A DNA stretch of 64,000 bases from a virus. The translations under genes were made by a program, and so were the position numbers. The notes under the pieces were generated by a model. That model made no database searches. It was not told the DNA's origin and saw only the letters and a list, made by a program, of their open reading frames with translations. The stretch is from IMG/VR virus record IMGVR_UViG_3300025030_000039, positions 60,878 through 124,877 of that record; one strand, 5' to 3'. Positions 1 through 60,884 of the stretch are shown here, piece after piece; the stretch's first letter is position 1, and every line of letters starts with the position of its first letter.

Positions 1-269
1 TTATTATTCCATATTATTAATCCTTTTTCATTTCCATATTTATCTAAATAATATTGTTTAGATGAATAATATTTACACTTTAATTTATATTCTTTATATT
101 TTTTATTTCCTTCTATTTCACCGTATTTTAGTATATACTTTTCTAAACTTACTCCTCTAATAAATTTATGATATAATTTATATGCTTCTTCAATAGAAAA
201 TTTATTAATTAATTCATTCCATTTACTAGGATATGTTTTAACATCTATTCCTTTTAACATCTGCTCCAT
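1..269 (-). CDS. Hypothetical protein, partial. The ATG is at 267..269 and the ORF runs off the window start without a stop. It lies immediately downstream of the NrdJ split-intein N-fragment ORF and could be a free-standing endonuclease sitting between intein halves.
   Basis: Open minus-strand frame from the ATG at 267..269 to position 1 with no stop; translation begins MEQMLKGIDVKTYPSKWNELINKF. It is absent from the ORF track because it is unterminated. Confidence 0.3.
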   Translation of the reverse strand, partial: MEQMLKGIDVKTYPSKWNELINKFSIEEAYKLYHKFIRGVSLEKYILKYGEIEGNKKYKEYKLKCKYYSSKQYYLDKYGNEKGLIIWNN

Positions 270-305
270 TATTTAATTTTATTTTATATATTAATGGAGC
301 AACTG

Positions 306-2150
306 TTAATTTATTTTTTTAATTATTTTATCACCTACTTTTAATTCTTCAGCATTCTTCCAAATTGCTTCTTTATCATTAATTAAAACTAAAAATTTAT
401 GAACTTTACTTGTAAAAATATTGTAATCTTTATCTAATTTAAATCTATAACCCTCTGTTTTTCCATTCCAATATAATTTTGTTATTTTATTATAGTTTCC
501 ATTTATATCTAAAATATTAATAGGTTTAATTAAATCAAACCATATATTATTTTTAGTCTCAAGTTCTTTAATATTAACACCATTTATATTAAATATTTCT
601 TCTAATGAAATATCACCTATATCAGTTTTAATTATAGCATCTTTTTCTAAACATCCCGTGGGGGCGGCTGTTAGTAAACCTATATTTCTTCTTCCGTGTT
701 TAATTAACAGTTCACTTACTTCAGAATCTGCTTTAATTAATCTTTGAATAAATGAATTTCCAATTTCTTTATCTCCATCATATATTTTAAAAGATCCTCT
801 ATCTTTTGCTAATAAACATGATGATTTATAAACTTCAATTGCCATTATTTTATGAACTTCTTCAGAAAATTTTATAGCATCATCTGTAGCATAAGTTAAA
901 CCTAATGCAGCTAACATGTCTCCTTCAGCAGTAATACCGATTCCAACTCTTCTGCCTAATAAAGCTTTTTCTTTAATTTTTTTCCATAAATTTAACTCTA
1001 TTAATTTAACTTCATCAGATTCTTTATCATTATTAATTTTTTCTAATATTTTATCAATTTTTTCTATTTCTAAATCAATAATATCATCTGATATTTTTAC
1101 TGCATATTTTATATGTTCTTTAAATAACTCAAAATTAAATTTTGCTTCTTTTGTAAATGGATTATCTATATATGAATATAAATTTATAGCAAGTAACCGA
1201 CAGCTGTCATACTTACATAGGGCGATTTCCCCGCACGGATTTGTAGAAACAGATTTAAATCCAACATCTGCATAACAATCTGGCACTGATTCACGTATTA
1301 TAGTATCCCAAAATAATATTCCAGGTTCAGCTGATTTCCATGCGTTGTGAATAATTTTTTTCCATAATTTTTTAGCATCTATTTCTTTAACTATTTTTGC
1401 TTTTTCTTTTTGTACGTTTATGGGATATTGTTGAAAATATGATGTATTATTTAAAACTGCCGTCATAAATTCATCATCTAATTTAACTGATATATTAGCA
1501 CCAGTAACTTTACCTTCTGCTAATTTAGCATCAATAAATTCTTCTGTATCTGGATGTTTTATAGATATGCTAAGCATAAGGGCCCCCCTTCTGCCGTCTT
1601 GAGCTACTTCTCTAGTAGAATTAGAGTATCTTTCCATAAAAGGAACTATACCTGTAGATGTCAGTGCAGAATTTTTAACAGCAGATCCTTTTGGTCTAAT
1701 ATGACTTAAGTCGTGACCAACACCGCCTCTTCTTTTCATTAATTGTATTTGTTCTTGATCTATTTTTAAAATAGATCCATAAGAATCACCTTCATCACCA
1801 ATGACAAAACAATTAGATAATGAAACAATTTGTAAATTATTTCCAATACCCGACATAGGACCGCCTTGTGGAACAATATACTTAAAATCCTTAATTAATT
1901 CAAATATTTTATCTTCTGATATTGGATTAACATAATTATTTTCTATTCTTGAAATTTCACCTGCTAATCTGTGATGCATATCATCAGGTGTTTTTTCATA
2001 AAATTTTCCATCAGAATCTTTAATAGCATATTTATTTAAAAATACTTTTGCTATCATTTCATCTCCTTTAAAATATTTTAAAGATTCTTCTAAAGCTTCA
2101 TTATAAGTATACGTATTAATAACTTCTTTATTAATTTTAGTCATTTCCAT
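306..2150 (-). CDS. nrdJ: Class II (B12-dependent) ribonucleotide reductase NrdJ, N-terminal extein of about 499 aa fused to a 115 aa split-intein N-fragment. The C-terminal extein is not in this ORF.
   Basis: STNPCGEIAL matches the NPCGE active-site motif of class II RNRs. The ORF ends shortly after the conserved APTG motif, where a Cys-initiated intein-like sequence begins. Confidence 0.75.
   Translation of the reverse strand: MEMTKINKEVINTYTYNEALEESLKYFKGDEMIAKVFLNKYAIKDSDGKFYEKTPDDMHHRLAGEISRIENNYVNPISEDKIFELIKDFKYIVPQGGPMSGIGNNLQIVSLSNCFVIGDEGDSYGSILKIDQEQIQLMKRRGGVGHDLSHIRPKGSAVKNSALTSTGIVPFMERYSNSTREVAQDGRRGALMLSISIKHPDTEEFIDAKLAEGKVTGANISVKLDDEFMTAVLNNTSYFQQYPINVQKEKAKIVKEIDAKKLWKKIIHNAWKSAEPGILFWDTIIRESVPDCYADVGFKSVSTNPCGEIALCKYDSCRLLAINLYSYIDNPFTKEAKFNFELFKEHIKYAVKISDDIIDLEIEKIDKILEKINNDKESDEVKLIELNLWKKIKEKALLGRRVGIGITAEGDMLAALGLTYATDDAIKFSEEVHKIMAIEVYKSSCLLAKDRGSFKIYDGDKEIGNSFIQRLIKADSEVSELLIKHGRRNIGLLTAAPTGCLEKDAIIKTDIGDISLEEIFNINGVNIKELETKNNIWFDLIKPINILDINGNYNKITKLYWNGKTEGYRFKLDKDYNIFTSKVHKFLVLINDKEAIWKNAEELKVGDKIIKKIN
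309..653 (-). mobile_element. Split intein N-fragment (IntN), 115 aa, containing intein blocks A and B and followed by a stop codon.
   Basis: Starts CLEKDAII (block A, C-x-x-x-D-x-x-I) directly after extein TAAPTG. TSKVHKFLV resembles block B. The tail HKFLVLINDKEAIWKNAEEL resembles the Npu DnaE IntN tail HKFMTVDGQMLPIDEIFERELDL. Length and stop position are typical of naturally split inteins. Confidence 0.6.
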
Positions 2151-2164
2151 TATTATTTATTTTT

Positions 2165-4108
2165 TTATTTTTTATATTCAAATTTATAGTTACCTGTTCC
2201 AAAACACCTATAACAACCTCTATCATGCATTATATCTACCTCTGTTAAACTTGGATCTGCTCCTTCTTTAATTAATTTATCCTTCCTAAACTTAAACCTA
2301 TTCTCCCTTAAACCATCTACTACCCACCAATAATTCAAACCAGTATGCCCTATATATTTAAAACCTAATTTTATATATAAGTTATCTTGCTCATCAACCG
2401 TCCAATCACAATCGGCATAACTTATTATTCTATTCGGTATATACTCCTTTATAAAATGCTTAAATAAGCGACTAGCTCCACCAATAACTGAAGTATCTAA
2501 TTTATTAGCAAATCTAGTCAACTCATACTCTCCTTCTTTAGCTACTTGATTTAAATTTTTACGTAGTTTACCAAAGGTCATTAATGATACTAACTCATCA
2601 TTATAATATAAACCTAATTTAACAGCTGCATTAACATTACCTTGTAAATGGTTCCTATTTAAAAACTCTCTACTATCACTAGAGGACACCTTTTTAACTA
2701 TACACTTTCTAGCGTATATTTTATTATATGTTAAATTTAAAATTTGTTTTAGTCTCGATTTAACTATTTCTTGCTTATTTAACCAATCATCTTCCCATAT
2801 ATGTATGAGTTTAACTCCTTTTTCTTTAGCTAATGCTGTCTTATTTAAATGATAATCTTTAAGTTTATTGAATTCATTGTGCCAATAAACTCCATTATGT
2901 TCTATTCCAATCTTATTATTTGGTATATAAATATCTATCTCATTACCATTTAAAATAGTTCGATCTTTTTTAGTTTCTATATTTAAATCATTTATAAATA
3001 ATTTAATCTCTTCTTCATTTTTACTTTCAAAAGAATTTGTAGAATTTAAAGGATTACATATTGTACAAATATTAACATTATAATGATGTCTTTGATGTAA
3101 AAGATGTATATTTATATTTTTATAATCTTTGCATTCACTACAATAAAAATCCAATGTTCCATTTTCATATACCTGTTTAATATCTAAATTATTATATCGT
3201 TCTTTTATTTTATTTTTATGTTTTTCAAATATAATTTTTTTAAAATATATACTCTTAAAAATAATTTTGTTTTTGTATCGTTCTAAATTAGTATCCTTAA
3301 TTTTTTCTTGTATATCTTTACACTGTGCTACATTTTCAACTCCATAACGTTCTAAATTAGTATCCTTAATTTTTTCCTTAATATCTTCTCTTTGTAATGT
3401 ATTTTCAACTCTATAACGTTCTAAATTAGTATCCTTAATTTTTTCTTGTATATCTTTACACTGTGCTACATTTTCAACTCCATAACGTTCTAAATTAGTT
3501 TTTTTAATTTTTTCTTGTACATCTTTTCTTTGTATAGCATGCTCTACTCCATATAGTTCCAAATTATTTTTAATAATCTTATCTTTTATATCTTTATATT
3601 GTAAACTACATTCAACTCCATATTTTTTAAAATTAGTTTCTTTAATTTTTTCCTTAACATCTTTTGCTTGAAAACTATGCTCAACTCCATATCGTTTTAA
3701 AAATGTTTTTTTAATTTTTTCTTTTACAATATTACTTGATCCTGAATTTTCACATCCATATCTTTCTAAATTAGTTTTTTTAATTTTTTCTTGTACATCT
3801 TTTCTTTGTAAAACAGATGTAATTCCTTCATTTTTTAAAAGTCTTTCTTTAGTTTTTATATGTGCACATTTTAAACATGAATATTTATCTGTTAATTTAT
3901 TGGTCTGTGAAAAATATTTATTATATACAACTTTTTTTTCAATACCACAATAATCACATTTAACATTAATTTTAATACCACAGCCGGAATTTAAATTATT
4001 AATATCTAAAATTATTATTGATTTTATTTTAATATCTAAATATAAATTTTTATAAAATCTTATATTATTTGAAGTAATATTAATTTCAACATTTTTATCT
4101 AAAATCAT
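2165..4108 (-). CDS. Homing-endonuclease-like protein of 647 aa. It has an N-terminal Cys-rich zinc-finger-like region, an array of about six tandem 33 aa KIKxTNLERYGVEN repeats, a Vsr/DUF559-like PD-(D/E)xK nuclease-like domain, and a C-terminal domain of unknown function.
   Basis: CDYCG...CLKCAH Cys pairs; repeated EKIKKTNLERYGVE modules; IDIYIPNNKIGIEHNGVYWHNE...KLIHIWEDDW resembles Vsr/DUF559 endonuclease motifs. The ATG overlaps the stop of the upstream polB fragment as ATGA. Confidence 0.55.
   Translation of the reverse strand: MILDKNVEINITSNNIRFYKNLYLDIKIKSIIILDINNLNSGCGIKINVKCDYCGIEKKVVYNKYFSQTNKLTDKYSCLKCAHIKTKERLLKNEGITSVLQRKDVQEKIKKTNLERYGCENSGSSNIVKEKIKKTFLKRYGVEHSFQAKDVKEKIKETNFKKYGVECSLQYKDIKDKIIKNNLELYGVEHAIQRKDVQEKIKKTNLERYGVENVAQCKDIQEKIKDTNLERYRVENTLQREDIKEKIKDTNLERYGVENVAQCKDIQEKIKDTNLERYKNKIIFKSIYFKKIIFEKHKNKIKERYNNLDIKQVYENGTLDFYCSECKDYKNINIHLLHQRHHYNVNICTICNPLNSTNSFESKNEEEIKLFINDLNIETKKDRTILNGNEIDIYIPNNKIGIEHNGVYWHNEFNKLKDYHLNKTALAKEKGVKLIHIWEDDWLNKQEIVKSRLKQILNLTYNKIYARKCIVKKVSSSDSREFLNRNHLQGNVNAAVKLGLYYNDELVSLMTFGKLRKNLNQVAKEGEYELTRFANKLDTSVIGGASRLFKHFIKEYIPNRIISYADCDWTVDEQDNLYIKLGFKYIGHTGLNYWWVVDGLRENRFKFRKDKLIKEGADPSLTEVDIMHDRGCYRCFGTGNYKFEYKK
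3240..3830 (-). repeat. Tandem 99 nt coding repeats, about six copies, some nearly identical (for example 3296..3350 versus 3435..3500).
   Basis: Direct sequence repetition seen in the DNA, for example ttttttcttgtatatctttacactgtgctacattttcaactccataacgttctaaattagt twice. It encodes the 33 aa repeat array of the 647 aa protein. Confidence 0.7.
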
Positions 4109-5523
4109 GCACTTTTTCTTTTTTCTAATATATGTTTAATTTCATCTGCTTCCATTTCATATTTAAACATTTCTTTTTTATATTCTTTTCTTTGACTATA
4201 AAGTCTATTCAATATACCTTTTAATATTGAATCTTTTGTACTATATACACACCCATTAACTGCTACAATTCTATCATCTTGTTTATATTCATTTCTTACA
4301 TCAGGATCAACTTTCATTATAAATGAATCAGGAGATACATTCATCTGTCTCATAATCGAAGGATAAAGTGATGCAAAATCAAAGCAAGCTACTGCTTTAT
4401 GACGTCCTGTAATTGGTTTTTTAACATAAGCACCTTCATATTGTTCATCTTTATTTTCTTTTCTAATATTAAAATCTGAGGCTAATATTTTGTTATCTTT
4501 TAAAAATTCTCTTGCTAATAATGATTCAGTAATTGAAACTGGTGAATCAGCTTTATAAATACTAATTTTACATAGATTAGCTAATGTTAAAACTATTTCC
4601 ATTGTTTTAAGTTTTTCATGAATTAGCATTACTAATAATGTATCAACTGCAGTATAAAATACATATTTTTCAAAATCTTTTTCTAATAGATCTTTTAAAC
4701 TTCCATCGTAACTAATTTTCTTTAAACCTACTACTACCTCTGCTACCGTATTTAATTTAAAATTTTCTTTGACATCTACACTTCTATCCCATGCTTTATA
4801 AAGATCCATATAGTCCATTATTCCAACATGTAGTGGAATATCATTATTTTGATTATTTAATTTTCCGCTTGGTGATGCTATAGAAGGATCAATTCCTAAT
4901 CGACGAGCTCTATTTATAATATATTTCCAATCATAACCAATTACATTCCAACCACTCATCATTGGTATTTTTTTCTGTACTATTTCACTTAAAAAAGTAT
5001 ACAGCATGTCATATTCTGTATCAAACTTTTTATAAATAAAGGTAAATTTTTTACCAGTTTGTTCAAAGTATTTATCTATACTAGATTGAACATTAGCAAT
5101 ACTTTTTGCAGGCAAATTCAAATGTGAAAATACGATTACTTGATTTTTAGGAGTTGTAAAAGTAATTGTAGTAATTTTTTCTTTTGCAGAATCTGCTTCT
5201 GGAAATCCATCAACAATTTCAACTTCTATATCAATAAAATAAATATCTGGATAGTGTGTTCCAAAAATTTCATCTTGATCTTCTTTAGATAATCTTTCAA
5301 ATAATTCTGTTATTGAATGTTTATTTAAAAATTTTGAAGTATATTTTTTAACAGCACGTCCATCCCAATTTGTAAACTTCTTATCTTTTGATTTATCACT
5401 TTCACGACAAATCATCCAATTAGATATATTTTTTAATGGTATTGTTTTAAATGAAACTTTTCCTTCACTATTATAATAAGATATAATTAATGAATTACCT
5501 TCATTCTCAATGTCTAATAGCAT
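4105..5523 (-). CDS. Family B DNA polymerase, N-terminal fragment of 472 aa carrying the exonuclease region and polymerase motif A. It is truncated before motif B.
   Basis: FIDIEV contains the Exo I DxE motif. CFDFASLYPSIM is the motif A DxxSLYPS. KGILNRLYSQRKEYKKEM corresponds to the GILPxILExLLxARKxxKxEL linker that precedes motif B in pol delta-type enzymes. The ORF then stops; no KxxxNSxYG or YGDTDS motif follows. Confidence 0.8.
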   Translation of the reverse strand: MLLDIENEGNSLIISYYNSEGKVSFKTIPLKNISNWMICRESDKSKDKKFTNWDGRAVKKYTSKFLNKHSITELFERLSKEDQDEIFGTHYPDIYFIDIEVEIVDGFPEADSAKEKITTITFTTPKNQVIVFSHLNLPAKSIANVQSSIDKYFEQTGKKFTFIYKKFDTEYDMLYTFLSEIVQKKIPMMSGWNVIGYDWKYIINRARRLGIDPSIASPSGKLNNQNNDIPLHVGIMDYMDLYKAWDRSVDVKENFKLNTVAEVVVGLKKISYDGSLKDLLEKDFEKYVFYTAVDTLLVMLIHEKLKTMEIVLTLANLCKISIYKADSPVSITESLLAREFLKDNKILASDFNIRKENKDEQYEGAYVKKPITGRHKAVACFDFASLYPSIMRQMNVSPDSFIMKVDPDVRNEYKQDDRIVAVNGCVYSTKDSILKGILNRLYSQRKEYKKEMFKYEMEADEIKHILEKRKSA

Positions 5524-5542
5524 AAAATTTAAGATTTAAATA

Positions 5543-6106
5543 TTAATTACCAGTATGTCCGAATCCACCTTCTCCTCTTTGTGTTTTTTCTGTATAAAGT
5601 TCATTTTCAGGTACTTCGATTATGTCAGATAAATAAATAGGAATTTCTAAAAATTGAATTAATTTCATATTAGGAGTTAATGTAACTATATTTTCATTTG
5701 AAGTGTTATATACATTTAAATGAATTTCGCCCTGATAATCCTGATCAACTACACTTGCCAGGAAGGAAATGCCTAATTTAGAACCTACACCTGATTTAGT
5801 ATGAGCTATTAAAGCTCTATCTTTTCCCATTTTTACTTTTATTCCAGAAGGAATATTTATTCTTTCACCTGGACCTAATACTATACCTATTACTTTATCT
5901 AATTCATAGGTCATTGGCATGCTATTCATTATATCTTTATTTTTAGATACAATATCATCAATAAATTCTTGTGTAAATTCTGGAATAAAAAAATCAATAC
6001 CTGCTGATTCAGATGTTCCACGTGTTGGAAGTTTTACTTCTCTTGTTTTAGAAAAAAATATTTTATTTTCTTGCATATTAAGATTTTTTAGAGTTAGACT
6101 TTTCAT
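5543..6106 (-). CDS. dut: dUTPase-family trimeric pyrophosphatase (dUTPase or dCTPase). The true start may be the internal Met at 6076.
   Basis: SAGIDF (motif 1), TKSG (motif 2) and VVDQDYQGEI (motif 3, GxxDxDYRGE-like). Confidence 0.8.
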   Translation of the reverse strand: MKSLTLKNLNMQENKIFFSKTREVKLPTRGTSESAGIDFFIPEFTQEFIDDIVSKNKDIMNSMPMTYELDKVIGIVLGPGERINIPSGIKVKMGKDRALIAHTKSGVGSKLGISFLASVVDQDYQGEIHLNVYNTSNENIVTLTPNMKLIQFLEIPIYLSDIIEVPENELYTEKTQRGEGGFGHTGN

Positions 6107-6293
6107 TTTTCTTTTCAGCTTTTCTTTCAGCTATTTCATCAGCTCTTTTTTCAGCAGCTTGTTTAGAGATATCTCTAATTTTTAATTTCCATTCCTTTTT
6201 AGGAGTATAAAAATAACCATTAGTATTAACTAATTTTTCGGCTATTTCATTATTTACTCGTAAAATTTCATCATTCTTTTTTACTGTTTTCAT
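6078..6293 (-). CDS. Small Lys-rich basic protein of 71 aa.
   Basis: ORF with a highly basic C-terminus, KAEKKNEKSNSKKS. It overlaps the annotated dUTPase start by 29 nt, which argues for the internal dUTPase start. Confidence 0.35.
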   Translation of the reverse strand: MKTVKKNDEILRVNNEIAEKLVNTNGYFYTPKKEWKLKIRDISKQAAEKRADEIAERKAEKKNEKSNSKKS

Positions 6294-18113: not shown

Positions 18114-19832
18114 TTATTTATATTCGATATCATCAAATAAAATAGGTATACGTTTCTTGAATTCATCTAAAAGTGGACGCATTAATTCTCTCATTTGAGG
18201 ATGGGCTGCATTTGCAACTCTTAGTTTAAAAATATGTCTCCAATCTCTAATATTAGTTGACATATTTATTTCAGTCTTTAATGAATTTGGTAATACTGAT
18301 CTTGCTTGTTGTGGAGACCATTTGTAATCATTCATTAATTTATTATAATATTGTTCAGATTTTAACATTGATGTTAACCATTGTACATTTACCGAAGGAT
18401 AATCAAAATCTTTTGCTAAAGCATTAACATCAAATTCTGTATAAATATGTTCTTTAATATCTAACCATTCTGGTATAATAAAAGTAATATTATCATCTTT
18501 ACTATAATTACAATAACGGGTACTATTATGAACTATAAATCCATTAGCAATATAATTAGAATATGGTTCTTTCATTTCTATATCATAAGTATCTTCTACA
18601 CCAATATATGTAATACTTATAATTTCATCTATTATTCCTTTAACACCTATATGCCAACCGTGATGTAATAAATTATGACAACTACAGCATACTTTTGTAA
18701 GATTTATATCTTCATTATTGTTTAGATCTTTATCTTTATGATGAACTTCTAATTTAATATTACTTCCACATAATTCACATGAAAATATATTTTCTTTCTT
18801 AAATCTTGCTTCATCTCTACCTCTCAGTCCGCCACTCCAATTAGAATTATCTTCTCCAAATCCATTGTTATGATGGTTAAGCCTTAACGAATTTGCTTGC
18901 CTTTTAACTGATACATTATTATCCTCGGTTAATCCTTTATTCCAGACAACTCTCCCATCATTGTACTGTTTTTGTATTGTATTTTTAATTTTAATATATG
19001 AATCAGCAGTATGATTTTTATTGTACTTATCTTTATCTTTATCATTTTTTCGTTTAACAAAAATATTAAGTGTTTGAAGTTTAGTAAGAATTGTTCTATA
19101 TGGAATAGAAAATTCTTCACTAATTTCCGTAGGAGATAACCCAACTATATTATATAATCTAATTAATTCATTATCAGATAACGTGCATAAATTAGGTCTG
19201 CCATTAACTATAACCTTACTACCAATACTTAAATTTCGTAATTCTTCATATTTGTGAGTACTTGTCAAAAATCTATGAGTATTAGTACACTTTATTTTAT
19301 ACCCCAATTTAGTAACAACTTCAAATATTACATTATTACCCTTAAAGAATATAGCATTAAAATGATTAGATACTATTTCATTATTTTCATTTATACTTCG
19401 TAAAGTTAATGTCTTATTATGAGTTCTGTCATAATTTGTACCATGTTCTTGTCTTTCATATAATTCTTTGATAGTAATATTTTTATTAGAGGTTGACTTA
19501 ATAATAGTATCACCTGTTACACATTCTTGGGCAAAACTAGCTATTCTGTGTCTAACTAATTCATGACTAACTCCTCTATCACATGTAAATTTAACAGTAA
19601 TATTACCACCGAATTCTAACATTGCTTCGTGACCCATTTTAATAAGTTTAGCAATAAGTACTCTTGCTGATATAGCATCTAAATCATATAATTCACCATT
19701 AGGTGTTCTATGACCTATTTCTATTTTACCTTCGCTTTTATAACAAGTTCTAGCCGCTATTTCAATTTCTTTTAAAATACTTTCTCCATCAATAGGAGTT
19801 AATATTTCATATTTTGATTTGATTAAATTCAT
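18114..19832 (-). CDS. thyX: FAD-dependent thymidylate synthase ThyX, interrupted in-frame by a 333 aa intein that contains an HNH endonuclease motif.
   Basis: Joining the exteins gives RHRIASFAQE|STRY, the ThyX RHRxxSxxxxSxRY signature. The intein begins CVTGDTII and ends GFIVHN followed by Ser. Inside it are VHHKDKD...CCSCHNLLHH (HNH) and a helix-turn-helix-like segment. Confidence 0.85.
   Translation of the reverse strand: MNLIKSKYEILTPIDGESILKEIEIAARTCYKSEGKIEIGHRTPNGELYDLDAISARVLIAKLIKMGHEAMLEFGGNITVKFTCDRGVSHELVRHRIASFAQECVTGDTIIKSTSNKNITIKELYERQEHGTNYDRTHNKTLTLRSINENNEIVSNHFNAIFFKGNNVIFEVVTKLGYKIKCTNTHRFLTSTHKYEELRNLSIGSKVIVNGRPNLCTLSDNELIRLYNIVGLSPTEISEEFSIPYRTILTKLQTLNIFVKRKNDKDKDKYNKNHTADSYIKIKNTIQKQYNDGRVVWNKGLTEDNNVSVKRQANSLRLNHHNNGFGEDNSNWSGGLRGRDEARFKKENIFSCELCGSNIKLEVHHKDKDLNNNEDINLTKVCCSCHNLLHHGWHIGVKGIIDEIISITYIGVEDTYDIEMKEPYSNYIANGFIVHNSTRYCNYSKDDNITFIIPEWLDIKEHIYTEFDVNALAKDFDYPSVNVQWLTSMLKSEQYYNKLMNDYKWSPQQARSVLPNSLKTEINMSTNIRDWRHIFKLRVANAAHPQMRELMRPLLDEFKKRIPILFDDIEYK
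18525..19523 (-). mobile_element. Intein (Hint domain plus HNH homing endonuclease) inserted in thyX.
   Basis: The Cys codon at 19521..19523 starts the intein and the His-Asn codons at 18525..18530 end it, followed by the +1 Ser extein residue. Confidence 0.8.
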
Positions 19833-59678: not shown

Positions 59679-60884
59679 CTATAATTTTATTATATCAAAT
59701 TCAAAATTCAATCCAGCATCTAAACAAGCTTTTCTTTTCAATTCATTAACTTCTTTATTCTTATTATACGTATATACACTCTTTACTTCAATTATCTTAT
59801 TCTCACTAACTATATAAATATCTGGATAATAACGATGCTCTTTACCATCAATTGTAATATATATTACTTTCCCTATATATCTTTCAATATCTTTATTCTC
59901 AATCATTATATCACTCTCATCATATCCCATCTCAAACAATTTATCCAATGCTTGTGGTTCATAGCCCTGCACTCTAGTTATTTTACCAGAAGGCAATTCG
60001 TAACCTTTAAATCTAAATGCATTCATCATTGCTCTTTCAAATATAACTAAATCTTTCATTTGATGATCTACTCCATATCTTTCAATTAATGTTTCTTTAA
60101 TTTTTTCACGAATAATTGATGATTTAAATATCTGATCTACACCATATCTTTCAATTAATGTATTTTTTATTTTTTCTTTTATTTCATCAATATTTAATTT
60201 TAATGAACAATCTACATTATATCTTTTCATTAGTGTTTCTTTTATTTTTTTAGTTATACCTTCCTTTTTATGTCCATAAATTTTATCTTTAGTTTCATTA
60301 CATTTATTTATAACTTCTTTTACTTTCCAATTATGATCAACTCCATGCTTTTCTAAATAATTTTTTTTATATACTTCTCTAACAGTATTTGATTCAAATG
60401 GAGTTTTAAAACCATATTTTTTAATATTTGTATTTTCAATTTTTTTTCGAAATTCAGGATGTTGAATTGGTGCCTCAACTCCATATTTTTCTAACATAGT
60501 TTTTTTATACTTTTTTGCCCTTTTAATATAATGATTAGGATCATTCTTTTTTGTATTAACTATCTCATTGTACATATTACTATTAATTTTACAAATTTTA
60601 CTACAATACTTTTGATATCCTAAAGCTCTTCCTTTAAATCCTAATTCATTTTCTTTACATATAGGACAAATTGAAATATTTTGTACTTTATTAATGTAAT
60701 TAAATAATTTTTGAGAAAATTTAAAATCTTTATCTTTAAAATACTTATTATGATATTCTAATATTATTTTGAACTCTTTATTAAGATTTATTTCAAACCA
60801 GCTTTCAGCAGTATTAGCAGCTTTAGTTGCTTTTGAATAATAATATGACATTTTTTCTTCATCTAAAATTATTATACTTTCCAT
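59679..60884 (-). CDS. Homing-endonuclease-like protein of 401 aa with a Cys cluster, about six KIKETLIERYGVD-type repeats and a C-terminal PD-(D/E)xK-like domain. Paralogous in architecture to 2165..4108.
   Basis: ICPICKEN...CSKICK; repeats TMLEKYGVEAP, NIKKYGFKTP, LIERYGVDQ and LIERYGVDH; C-terminus YYPDIYIVSENKIIEVKS. Confidence 0.55.
   Translation of the reverse strand: MESIIILDEEKMSYYYSKATKAANTAESWFEINLNKEFKIILEYHNKYFKDKDFKFSQKLFNYINKVQNISICPICKENELGFKGRALGYQKYCSKICKINSNMYNEIVNTKKNDPNHYIKRAKKYKKTMLEKYGVEAPIQHPEFRKKIENTNIKKYGFKTPFESNTVREVYKKNYLEKHGVDHNWKVKEVINKCNETKDKIYGHKKEGITKKIKETLMKRYNVDCSLKLNIDEIKEKIKNTLIERYGVDQIFKSSIIREKIKETLIERYGVDHQMKDLVIFERAMMNAFRFKGYELPSGKITRVQGYEPQALDKLFEMGYDESDIMIENKDIERYIGKVIYITIDGKEHRYYPDIYIVSENKIIEVKSVYTYNKNKEVNELKRKACLDAGLNFEFDIIKL

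Follow-up and report, generated by a model that had tools for sequence, protein, structure and literature searches.

A fractured nrdJ gene with split-intein halves flanking a predicted Vsr-like homing endonuclease gene in an uncultured phage genome

In the first 2,150 positions of a 64,000-nt stretch of viral DNA (positions 60,878 to 124,877 of IMG/VR record IMGVR_UViG_3300025030_000039; this whole stretch is called the window below), the gene nrdJ for a class II (adenosylcobalamin-dependent) ribonucleotide reductase (RNR) breaks off inside a conserved motif and runs on as part of an intein, which raises the question of whether a complete enzyme could still be made. A sequence-only reading of these positions had proposed a fractured gene, the product of which would be assembled by protein trans-splicing, and had placed the remaining parts beyond window position 1. 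By megablast of window positions 1..6200 (100% identity), the window was identified as LR756500.1 258381..322380, window position 1 being record position 258381. LR756500.1 contains an unannotated genome assembly (462,018 bp) of an uncultured huge phage, and our literature search found no paper mentioning this accession. We read the DNA beyond window position 1 from segment L001 (record 210600..260580) and also examined the whole LR756500.1 genome. The G+C content of the window is approximately 24%, and nearly all long open reading frames (ORFs) lie on the minus strand, as do all parts of nrdJ and its cassette, and the other interrupted genes of this genome with their endonuclease genes, for which coordinates are given below. 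We found both halves of nrdJ and of the intein, separated by a free-standing endonuclease gene.

The ORF of the N-terminal precursor (306..2150; 614 aa, 69.7 kDa) comprises a 499-aa N-extein (654..2150), the C-terminal end of which is ...RNIGLLTAAPTG, and a 115-aa N-terminal split-intein half (IntN; 309..653), which ends in ...ELKVGDKIIKKIN. Residues 112–499 of the N-extein matched positions 1–390 of 523 of Pfam Ribonuc_red_lgC (E 9e-63), the match ending at residue 499, and positions 3–459 of 606 of NCBIfam TIGR02504 were also covered. The thiyl-radical motif NPCGE occupies residues 304–308. When the N-extein was compared with uninterrupted phage nrdJ genes (60–67% identity), all alignments stopped at residue 499. 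Immediately after ...LLTAAPTG, Cys500 forms Cys1 of IntN, with CLEKDAIIKTD as block A and SKVH as block B; the succession of a class II RNR up to APTG and a Cys-initiated Hint domain with blocks A and B, described in the sequence-only reading, was thus confirmed, as was the end of the ORF after 115 aa of intein. This stop is the TAA at 306..308, read directly, which is followed by three further in-frame TAA codons before the ATG at 269.

IntN matched positions 10–93 of 155 of Pfam Intein_splicing with an E-value of 2.4e-5, which is under the gathering score. In an alignment of 22 family members, Cys1 was invariant and the block-B His (H95 of the alignment) was nearly invariant. The Ser of SKVH, which was aligned with TPSH of the Pho RadA intein, stands in the usual place of Thr; it is also found in the closest relatives, and the other members have TxxH. 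The likeness of the IntN tail to that of Npu DnaE, which had been called striking, proved to be overstated. A BLASTP comparison with the Npu DnaE IntN gave 29% identity over 45 aa and ended at the block-B HKF motif. A special relationship to Npu DnaE was accordingly ruled out, and generic Hint-domain similarity is what stands.

The missing half was found 850–2,022 nt beyond window position 1, in an ORF at record 256359..257531 (L001 45760..46932) that encodes 390 aa (44.4 kDa), namely a 48-aa C-terminal intein half (IntC) and a 342-aa C-extein. The ORF begins with MQEIVNLENIQYELIEILEKTTDTDYTMDIEVEDTHYYILDNGIVSHN-TVSLMTQTTSGIEP... (MQEIVNLENIQYELIEILEKTTDTDYTMDIEVEDTHYYILDNGIVSHN-TVSLMTQTTSGIEPVF...; here and below, the hyphen marks the splice junction) and has a Cys-rich tail at its C-terminus. 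Its first 48 aa matched the C-terminal part of Pfam Intein_splicing, and IntC passed NCBIfam TIGR01443 intein_Cterm (26.5 bits versus a cut-off of 15.6). The block-F segment is DIEVED, and IntC ends in ...GIVSHN-T, that is, ...DIEVEDTHYYILDNGIVSHN-TVSL, with the terminal His-Asn followed by Thr+1. From residue 49 onward, the ORF matched positions 391–523 of Ribonuc_red_lgC, resuming exactly after positions 1–390 of the N half. The expectation that an IntC ending in HN, the RNR C-terminal region and its cysteines would be found past window position 1 therefore held, except that IntC is 48 aa long and not 35–40 aa. IntC is strongly acidic (12 D/E versus 1 K/R, pI 4.05), and the tail of IntN is rich in lysine. 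The ORF lies in a different frame from that of the endonuclease ORF and overlaps its 3' end by 13 nt.

To determine where the insertion begins and ends, we used 80 related nrdJ loci gathered from IMG/VR, 77 of which hold both extein parts. The codons of residue 499 and of the first C-extein residue were adjacent, with a gap of 0 nt, in all 77 genes, and the present intein was absent from all 80 loci. Because of this zero-gap junction, the insertion corresponds exactly to IntN, the spacer, the endonuclease gene and IntC, placed between Gly499 and Thr. The protein profiles were divided at the same point: the TIGR02504 match stopped in the N half and resumed in the C half at position 459, and PHROG 84 was split between the halves at positions 202–666 and 667–974. 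After splicing in silico, the NrdJ protein of 841 aa (94.9 kDa) scored 521.5 bits against TIGR02504 over positions 3–604 of 606, compared with a cut-off of 399.95, under which the separate N and C halves remained (371.6 and 127.5 bits, respectively). The spliced protein aligned unbroken across the junction with Thermotoga maritima NrdJ (1xjk; RRNIGLLTAAPTGTVSLMTQTTSGIEP versus RRNVALLTIAPTGSISNIADTSSGLEP), and the break point lies in the barrel, within its conserved APTG(T/S) motif. As its sequence shows, nrdJ is read as two polypeptides, N-extein-IntN and IntC-C-extein.

When IntN was fused to IntC, the fusion could be aligned over the break, without a large gap, with two Pho mini-inteins, RadA and CDC21 (E 6e-4 to 2e-3); these inteins, not DnaE, were the best matches among solved structures. 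The alignment across the break places the split at the usual position of endonuclease insertion, between blocks B and F. Together, the halves hold the full set of splicing residues: Cys1, the block-B His, DIEVED of block F, the terminal HN and Thr+1.

The ORF between the halves (record 257519..258649; window part 1..269) encodes 376 aa, of which the first 89 codons lie in the window, and runs 862 nt past window position 1 to record 257519. It is not an IntC, as had been stated from its partial sequence, but a free-standing endonuclease gene. There are two candidate start codons, the ATG at 269..267 and the ATG at 260..258, and comparison with homologues suggests that the second (window 260) is the true start. 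The 376-aa protein had no Pfam or NCBIfam match, and nothing meaningful was obtained in a direct PDB search. However, some distant members of the 64 homologues found carry Pfam PF18741 or PF04480 and were named very-short-patch-repair endonucleases by their sources. A profile built from 39 homologues matched E. coli Vsr (1odg, 1vsr, 1cw0; E 2e-4) and I-Bth0305I (3r3p; E 9e-3). Among these 39 homologues, D294 and E305 were nearly invariant and H312 was invariant; the Asp of ...IRNRDKRR... fits the consensus, and the YWH segment was aligned to Vsr F67-H69. The homologue P0001 (50% identical) was modelled with AlphaFold2 (predicted local distance difference test score 88.7); in the model, approximately 260 residues of helical KYGExEG repeats are followed by an alpha/beta domain, and a Foldseek search with this model returned 1vsr and 1cw0 with a probability of 0.97, although with E-values of 0.2–0.3 and a template-modelling score of 0.40 on the target. 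The homologues P0001 and P0006 likewise lie between two RNR half-genes, in nrdJ at the same site. We therefore regard the protein as a predicted Vsr-like (EDxHD) homing endonuclease, of the family whose first description came from fractured genes (PMC2677866, PMC3239194). The proposed arrangement, a fractured gene in which a free-standing endonuclease gene lies between the intein halves, is consistent with this assignment (PMC2677866).

A 56-nt RNA hairpin (254..309) spans the stop codon of IntN and the start region of the endonuclease gene (minimum free energy –18.2 kcal/mol, z –6.0), and none of 200 shuffled sequences folded as well. Its 3' arm contains both candidate ATG codons and a GGAG. 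The loop carries the motif TATATAAAATAAAA (277..290), which resembles the T4-type late promoter (TATAAATA). This 14-mer occurs in 13 exact copies in the genome, compared with 1.2 expected from composition, and nine of the 13 sit 2–10 nt upstream of an ORF start, those ORFs being mostly homing endonuclease genes. The motif may thus act as a late promoter, and a regulatory role of the hairpin is conceivable. Before the endonuclease start of three related loci there are likewise hairpins, with other stem sequences: the z-score is –4.8 in L092 and –7.4 in L094, and a hairpin can also be seen in L095; L090 and L093 differ from these three in this respect. Hairpins, often with a TATAAATA late-promoter element, upstream of the fracturing endonuclease genes were reported by Dassa et al. 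in 2009 (PMC2677866). An Rfam scan of 13 kb at gathering thresholds detected no intron or other RNA family, which ruled out a group I intron or other RNA element at nrdJ. A scan for sigma-70 promoters and terminators was uninformative in DNA of 24% G+C (22 sites versus 18.9 expected). Plus-strand ORFs inside 1..2150 (e.g. 916..1275) were taken as chance ORFs, antisense to a well-supported gene.

Does this arrangement recur elsewhere? Related loci were identified by a degenerate DNA pattern for ITKLYWNG (five IMG/VR contigs) and by look-ups of two endonuclease homologues (further metagenome contigs). In at least six other contigs, from phages or metagenomes, the same cassette of IntN, endonuclease gene and IntC occupies this nrdJ site, and the three-ORF layout is common to L090/91, L092, L094, L095/96 and L097/98. 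In these loci, the N-extein ends at residue 499 and is followed by IntN, a stop codon (TAA or TGA) in the same place and a spacer of 43–73 nt. Identities to the present cassette were 52–55% for IntN, 37–50% for the endonuclease and 50–63% for IntC. The exteins of the cassette-bearing loci were 42–67% identical to the present NrdJ, and the closest extein relatives (67%) lacked the cassette. Because the same layout recurs in divergent contigs and is missing from the closest extein relatives, the cassette is a recurrent mobile unit tied to the APTG-T site. Its presence in divergent phages but not in the closest nrdJ relatives is the pattern that homing predicts.

Two of these loci have additional insertions in nrdJ. 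The N-extein gene of L092 (3899..6787) contains an extra insertion of approximately 1.2–1.4 kb near residues 300–322, close to the radical site, and that of L094 (7385..11488) contains extra insertions of the same size range near residues 190 and 306. These nrdJ genes are thus multiply fractured, besides carrying the same cassette.

The distribution of IntN itself was examined by an exhaustive HMMER search of 1.84 billion cluster representatives, from which the best 150 matches at E ≤ 1e-3 were taken. There were at least 150 relatives at this threshold and 31 at E ≤ 1e-10. The proteins of 124 of the 150 stop within 15 aa after the IntN match, which indicates that the ending is not a product of truncation at contig ends; the IntN family is overwhelmingly of the split kind. 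In most relatives, the motif before the Cys is that of RNR, ...APTG-C, ...KPSG-C or ...MPSES-C, and some relatives carry a LAGLIDADG-like insert. A word-indexed protein search with IntN and 10 aa of flank gave no matches.

From the gene structure and the motif content, we infer protein splicing, late expression of the endonuclease and homing of the cassette; that nrdJ is a fractured gene yielding a 94.9-kDa NrdJ by protein trans-splicing, with endonuclease-driven homing of the cassette, seems to us very probable. The mobile cassette, composed of IntN, the free-standing Vsr-like endonuclease gene and IntC, is inserted in nrdJ after Gly499 and before the Thr that follows it. IntN, with its basic tail, and the highly acidic IntC would associate into one Hint domain, and class-1 trans-splicing would proceed by an N-S acyl shift at Cys1 and transfer to the hydroxyl of Thr+1, after which the terminal Asn of IntC would cyclise and an O-N shift would follow. 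The predicted product is the 841-aa NrdJ with the native ...APTG-TVSLM... junction. The endonuclease would be expressed separately, probably late, from a message whose hairpin could occlude the start codon and whose loop carries the late-promoter-like motif. It would cut the cassette-free nrdJ of co-infecting phages near the insertion site, and repair would copy in the whole cassette.

Several observations weigh against this interpretation. Both intein halves score under the gathering score of Pfam Intein_splicing; Ser takes the place of the canonical block-B Thr, and Thr serves as the +1 nucleophile; and the match of the endonuclease to Vsr is modest (profile E 2e-4; Foldseek E 0.2, probability 0.97). 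In addition, the IntC ORF lacks a clear Shine-Dalgarno sequence, so that its translation may plausibly depend on coupling to the endonuclease ORF. Ser in block B and Thr as the +1 nucleophile are both tolerated in known inteins.

We considered three other explanations, all of which we rate low because the splicing residues are conserved, the exteins are intact and the same three ORFs occur in independent assemblies. A working reductase might be formed without splicing if the intein halves served only as a high-affinity dimerisation module, in a manner comparable to NrdA of Aeh1, a documented case of a phage RNR that functions in fragments without protein splicing (PMC3045599). The replacement of Thr by Ser in block B could be read in this way, as could the intein-less fractures in the same genome (polB fragments 1 and 2, and the NAD ligase; see below). 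This explanation is nevertheless improbable, since Cys1, the block-B His, the terminal HN and Thr/Ser+1 are all kept here and in six related loci that are approximately 50% identical, a degree of conservation that would be unexpected if binding alone mattered. Moreover, in an unspliced enzyme, approximately 160 residues of Hint domain would adjoin the active site, the break being inside the APTG(T/S) barrel motif.

Even less credible, in our view, is that nrdJ is a decaying pseudogene, inactivated by invasion of the endonuclease gene and retaining the intein halves as relics. Over 841 aa, neither extein ORF is disrupted, and the joined sequence reaches the NrdJ equivalog cut-off; the NPCGE radical motif and the C-terminal Cys cluster are retained, and the same architecture, with frames open throughout, is found in several divergent phages. 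These features stand against decay even in a genome full of homing endonuclease genes (at least nine of the DUF7487 type and several Vsr-like), and although degenerating RNR genes have been reported from Campylobacter phages (PMC3653736). We give the least credence of all, very little indeed, to the view that the split is an artefact of assembly or sequencing, or that the stops are read through, the real gene encoding a single unbroken intein that includes an endonuclease domain. The IntN and endonuclease ORFs do share a reading frame (2150 – 269 = 1881 = 3 × 627), but the four in-frame TAA codons between them mean that no single sequencing error could join the two, the IntC ORF overlaps that of the endonuclease out of frame, and the long ORFs genome-wide fit the standard code. 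Three separate ORFs were also found in independent assemblies from other samples, in which the spacer lengths and stop codons vary. A contiguous intein disrupted by a sequencing error was thus ruled out by the four in-frame stops and by the same layout in the independent assemblies.

How does the fractured nrdJ, read as a trans-spliced gene, compare with known systems? The fractured genes described by Dassa et al. in 2009 from the Global Ocean Sampling metagenome already include NrdJ-1 and NrdJ-2 (PMC2677866). These share with the present locus the class II RNR host, the order of N-extein-IntN, free-standing endonuclease gene on the same strand and IntC-C-extein, the phage origin, a hairpin that precedes the endonuclease start and carries a TATAAATA-like late-promoter element, and all Hint splicing motifs. 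The NrdJ-1 and NrdJ-2 inteins, however, sit one residue after the thiyl-radical site (PMC2677866), at the NPC motif, which here lies around Cys306, whereas the present intein follows Gly499, 193 residues further on. Because of this different insertion point, the present intein is not a member of NrdJ-1/2 as described in PMC2677866 but belongs to a different allele family. It also has an IntN of 115 aa, compared with the 88–105 aa reported there (PMC2677866), and Thr as its +1 residue. The type of layout was therefore described in 2009 (PMC2677866), and what is new here is the insertion site and the dedicated endonuclease lineage.

The endonuclease resembles the Vsr-like (EDxHD) homing endonucleases, among which I-Bth0305I has been studied (PMC3239194; PDB 3R3P), in its bipartite build, in its C-terminal nuclease domain with Asp, Glu and His (D294, E305 and H312) and in its place between split-intein halves. 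The N-terminal helical part is presumably DNA-binding, but in place of the two NUMOD-2/helix-turn-helix motifs of I-Bth0305I it consists, in a high-confidence model, of approximately 260 aa of ...KYGExEG... helical units; its sequence link to Vsr and 3R3P exists at the profile level only. The Aeh1 nrdA/mobE locus (PMC3045599) is also a phage gene for an RNR large subunit that is broken by a free-standing homing endonuclease gene, and the expression of mobE is controlled by a hairpin and a late-promoter element (PMC3045599). It has no intein, and its fragments reassemble non-covalently, whereas complete intein halves flank the break in the present gene.

Contiguous mini-inteins in the proteins P0085, P0134 and P0185 occupy the same site (...AP(T/C)G-C ... 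SHN-T(I/V/T)S...). That of P0134 ends in DIEVEDDHYYILDNGIISHN-T (...DIEVEDDHYYILDNGIISHN-TISL), closely related to DIEVEDTHYYILDNGIVSHN-T here. Each of these is a single polypeptide, blocks B and F of which are not separated by an endonuclease gene, and they look like the state before invasion by a free-standing endonuclease gene under the gene-breaking model of Dassa et al. The cyanobacterial DnaE split inteins (Npu, Ssp) share with the present one a natural split at the canonical position between blocks B and F, Cys1, the terminal HN and an association of the halves, predicted here, through charge complementarity. The genes for the DnaE halves, however, lie far from each other, without an intervening endonuclease gene, and their charge polarity is the opposite of that in the present intein, in which IntC is the acidic half.

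For annotation, these results mean that two ORFs that would be labelled 'partial RNR' and one labelled 'hypothetical protein' probably represent one functional nrdJ gene and a selfish element. The locus is a complete, genome-anchored example of a class initially known for the most part from short pieces of metagenomic sequence, and it leaves the current understanding of inteins unchanged. The Cys1/Thr+1 pair (115 + 48 aa) and its approximately 50%-identical relatives are candidate new orthogonal split inteins for protein engineering.

The same genome contains further interrupted genes. Split inteins, with endonuclease genes between their halves, break up approximately six other genes of LR756500.1, namely polB and those for both topoisomerase II subunits, the clamp loader, PIN-PhoH and the terminase large subunit. 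The T4-type gp43 family B DNA polymerase gene is in three pieces, which, when joined, align in one stretch with residues 112–835 of RB69 gp43. Fragment 1 (window 4105..5523; 472 aa) has no intein at its end, and a DUF7487/MTES_1575 endonuclease gene (window 2165..4108) comes after it. Approximately 10 kb downstream, with nrdJ and some eight other genes between, come fragment 2 (L001 40814..41584), a second DUF7487 endonuclease gene (L001 39118..40821) and IntC with fragment 3 (L001 38184..39125). Fragment 2 ends in ...YIDTD-SIQKEAK..., a Ser1 IntN, and the IntC before fragment 3 ends in ...ILVHN-S; a similar Ser1 split PolB intein was reported in the jumbo phage MIJ3 (PMC6892783).

Both topoisomerase II subunits are fractured (LR756500.1 163149..169558; L082 2549..8958). 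The first set consists of a GyrB-like ATPase-IntN (...GIFEGL-CLEENTF), an HNH-type endonuclease gene and IntC (...GIISHN-S)-Toprim, and the second of a GyrA-like N part-IntN (...YHHGD-CGDYDT), a Vsr-like endonuclease gene and IntC (...IVVHN-S)-rest of GyrA. The gp44-type clamp-loader ATPase (LR756500.1 208136..210881) is split at ...VVILDE-CLQEDE into an IntN part, a 443-aa unclassified ORF and IntC (...GICTHN-C)-lid domain. In PIN-PhoH (LR756500.1 38866..42128; L085 28266..31528), the N-terminal ORF ends in ...LTGKAG-CLYPDEKIKIY..., with only approximately 26 aa following the Cys; next come a Vsr-like endonuclease gene and then an ORF with most of the Hint domain before ...GISSHN-TGKT (Walker A). 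Judged by these motifs, PIN-PhoH appears to contain an atypical split intein with a short IntN and a long IntC. The terminase large subunit gene (LR756500.1 194236..197824; L082 33636..37224) is split at ...ARQTGK-CFFHN and followed by a paralogue of the nrdJ endonuclease gene; the ORF downstream, of 628 aa, does not match Terminase_6N before residue 148, which leaves room for a long IntC and is reminiscent of the unusual 'Terminase' locus of Dassa et al., the C part of which has 122 residues.

We considered whether the approximately seven split inteins of this phage are all active at once and mutually orthogonal, with the nrdJ intein representing an undescribed, widespread APTG-T allelic family that has a dedicated endonuclease lineage. 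We put this forward tentatively, as somewhat short of an even chance; two of the seven are apparently atypical, with a short IntN. If it were true, the genome would be a natural, pre-validated set of orthogonal trans-splicing pairs, and most of the replication and packaging machinery would depend on protein trans-splicing.

Two further genes appear to be interrupted in other ways. The sequence motifs of the ORFs at LR756500.1 356125..359237 suggest an NAD-dependent DNA ligase that a DUF7487-like endonuclease gene has broken in two; intein halves could not be recognised there. The thyX gene (window 18114..19832), for the flavin-dependent thymidylate synthase ThyX, encodes a contiguous intein (...FAQE-CVTGDT ... 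FIVHN-STRY) with an internal HNH-type endonuclease region; its ORF scored 55.4 bits against Pfam Intein_splicing, which is above the cut-off, and matched Thy1 with an E-value of 3e-35. Genome-wide, there are approximately 17 homing-endonuclease-like genes, comprising at least nine full-length DUF7487-type genes and several Vsr-like and HNH genes, including those at 2165..4108 and 59679..60884 in the window, and 11 places were matched by window positions 1..6200 because of such endonuclease paralogues. The motif TATATAAAATAAAA precedes many of the homing endonuclease genes of this genome.

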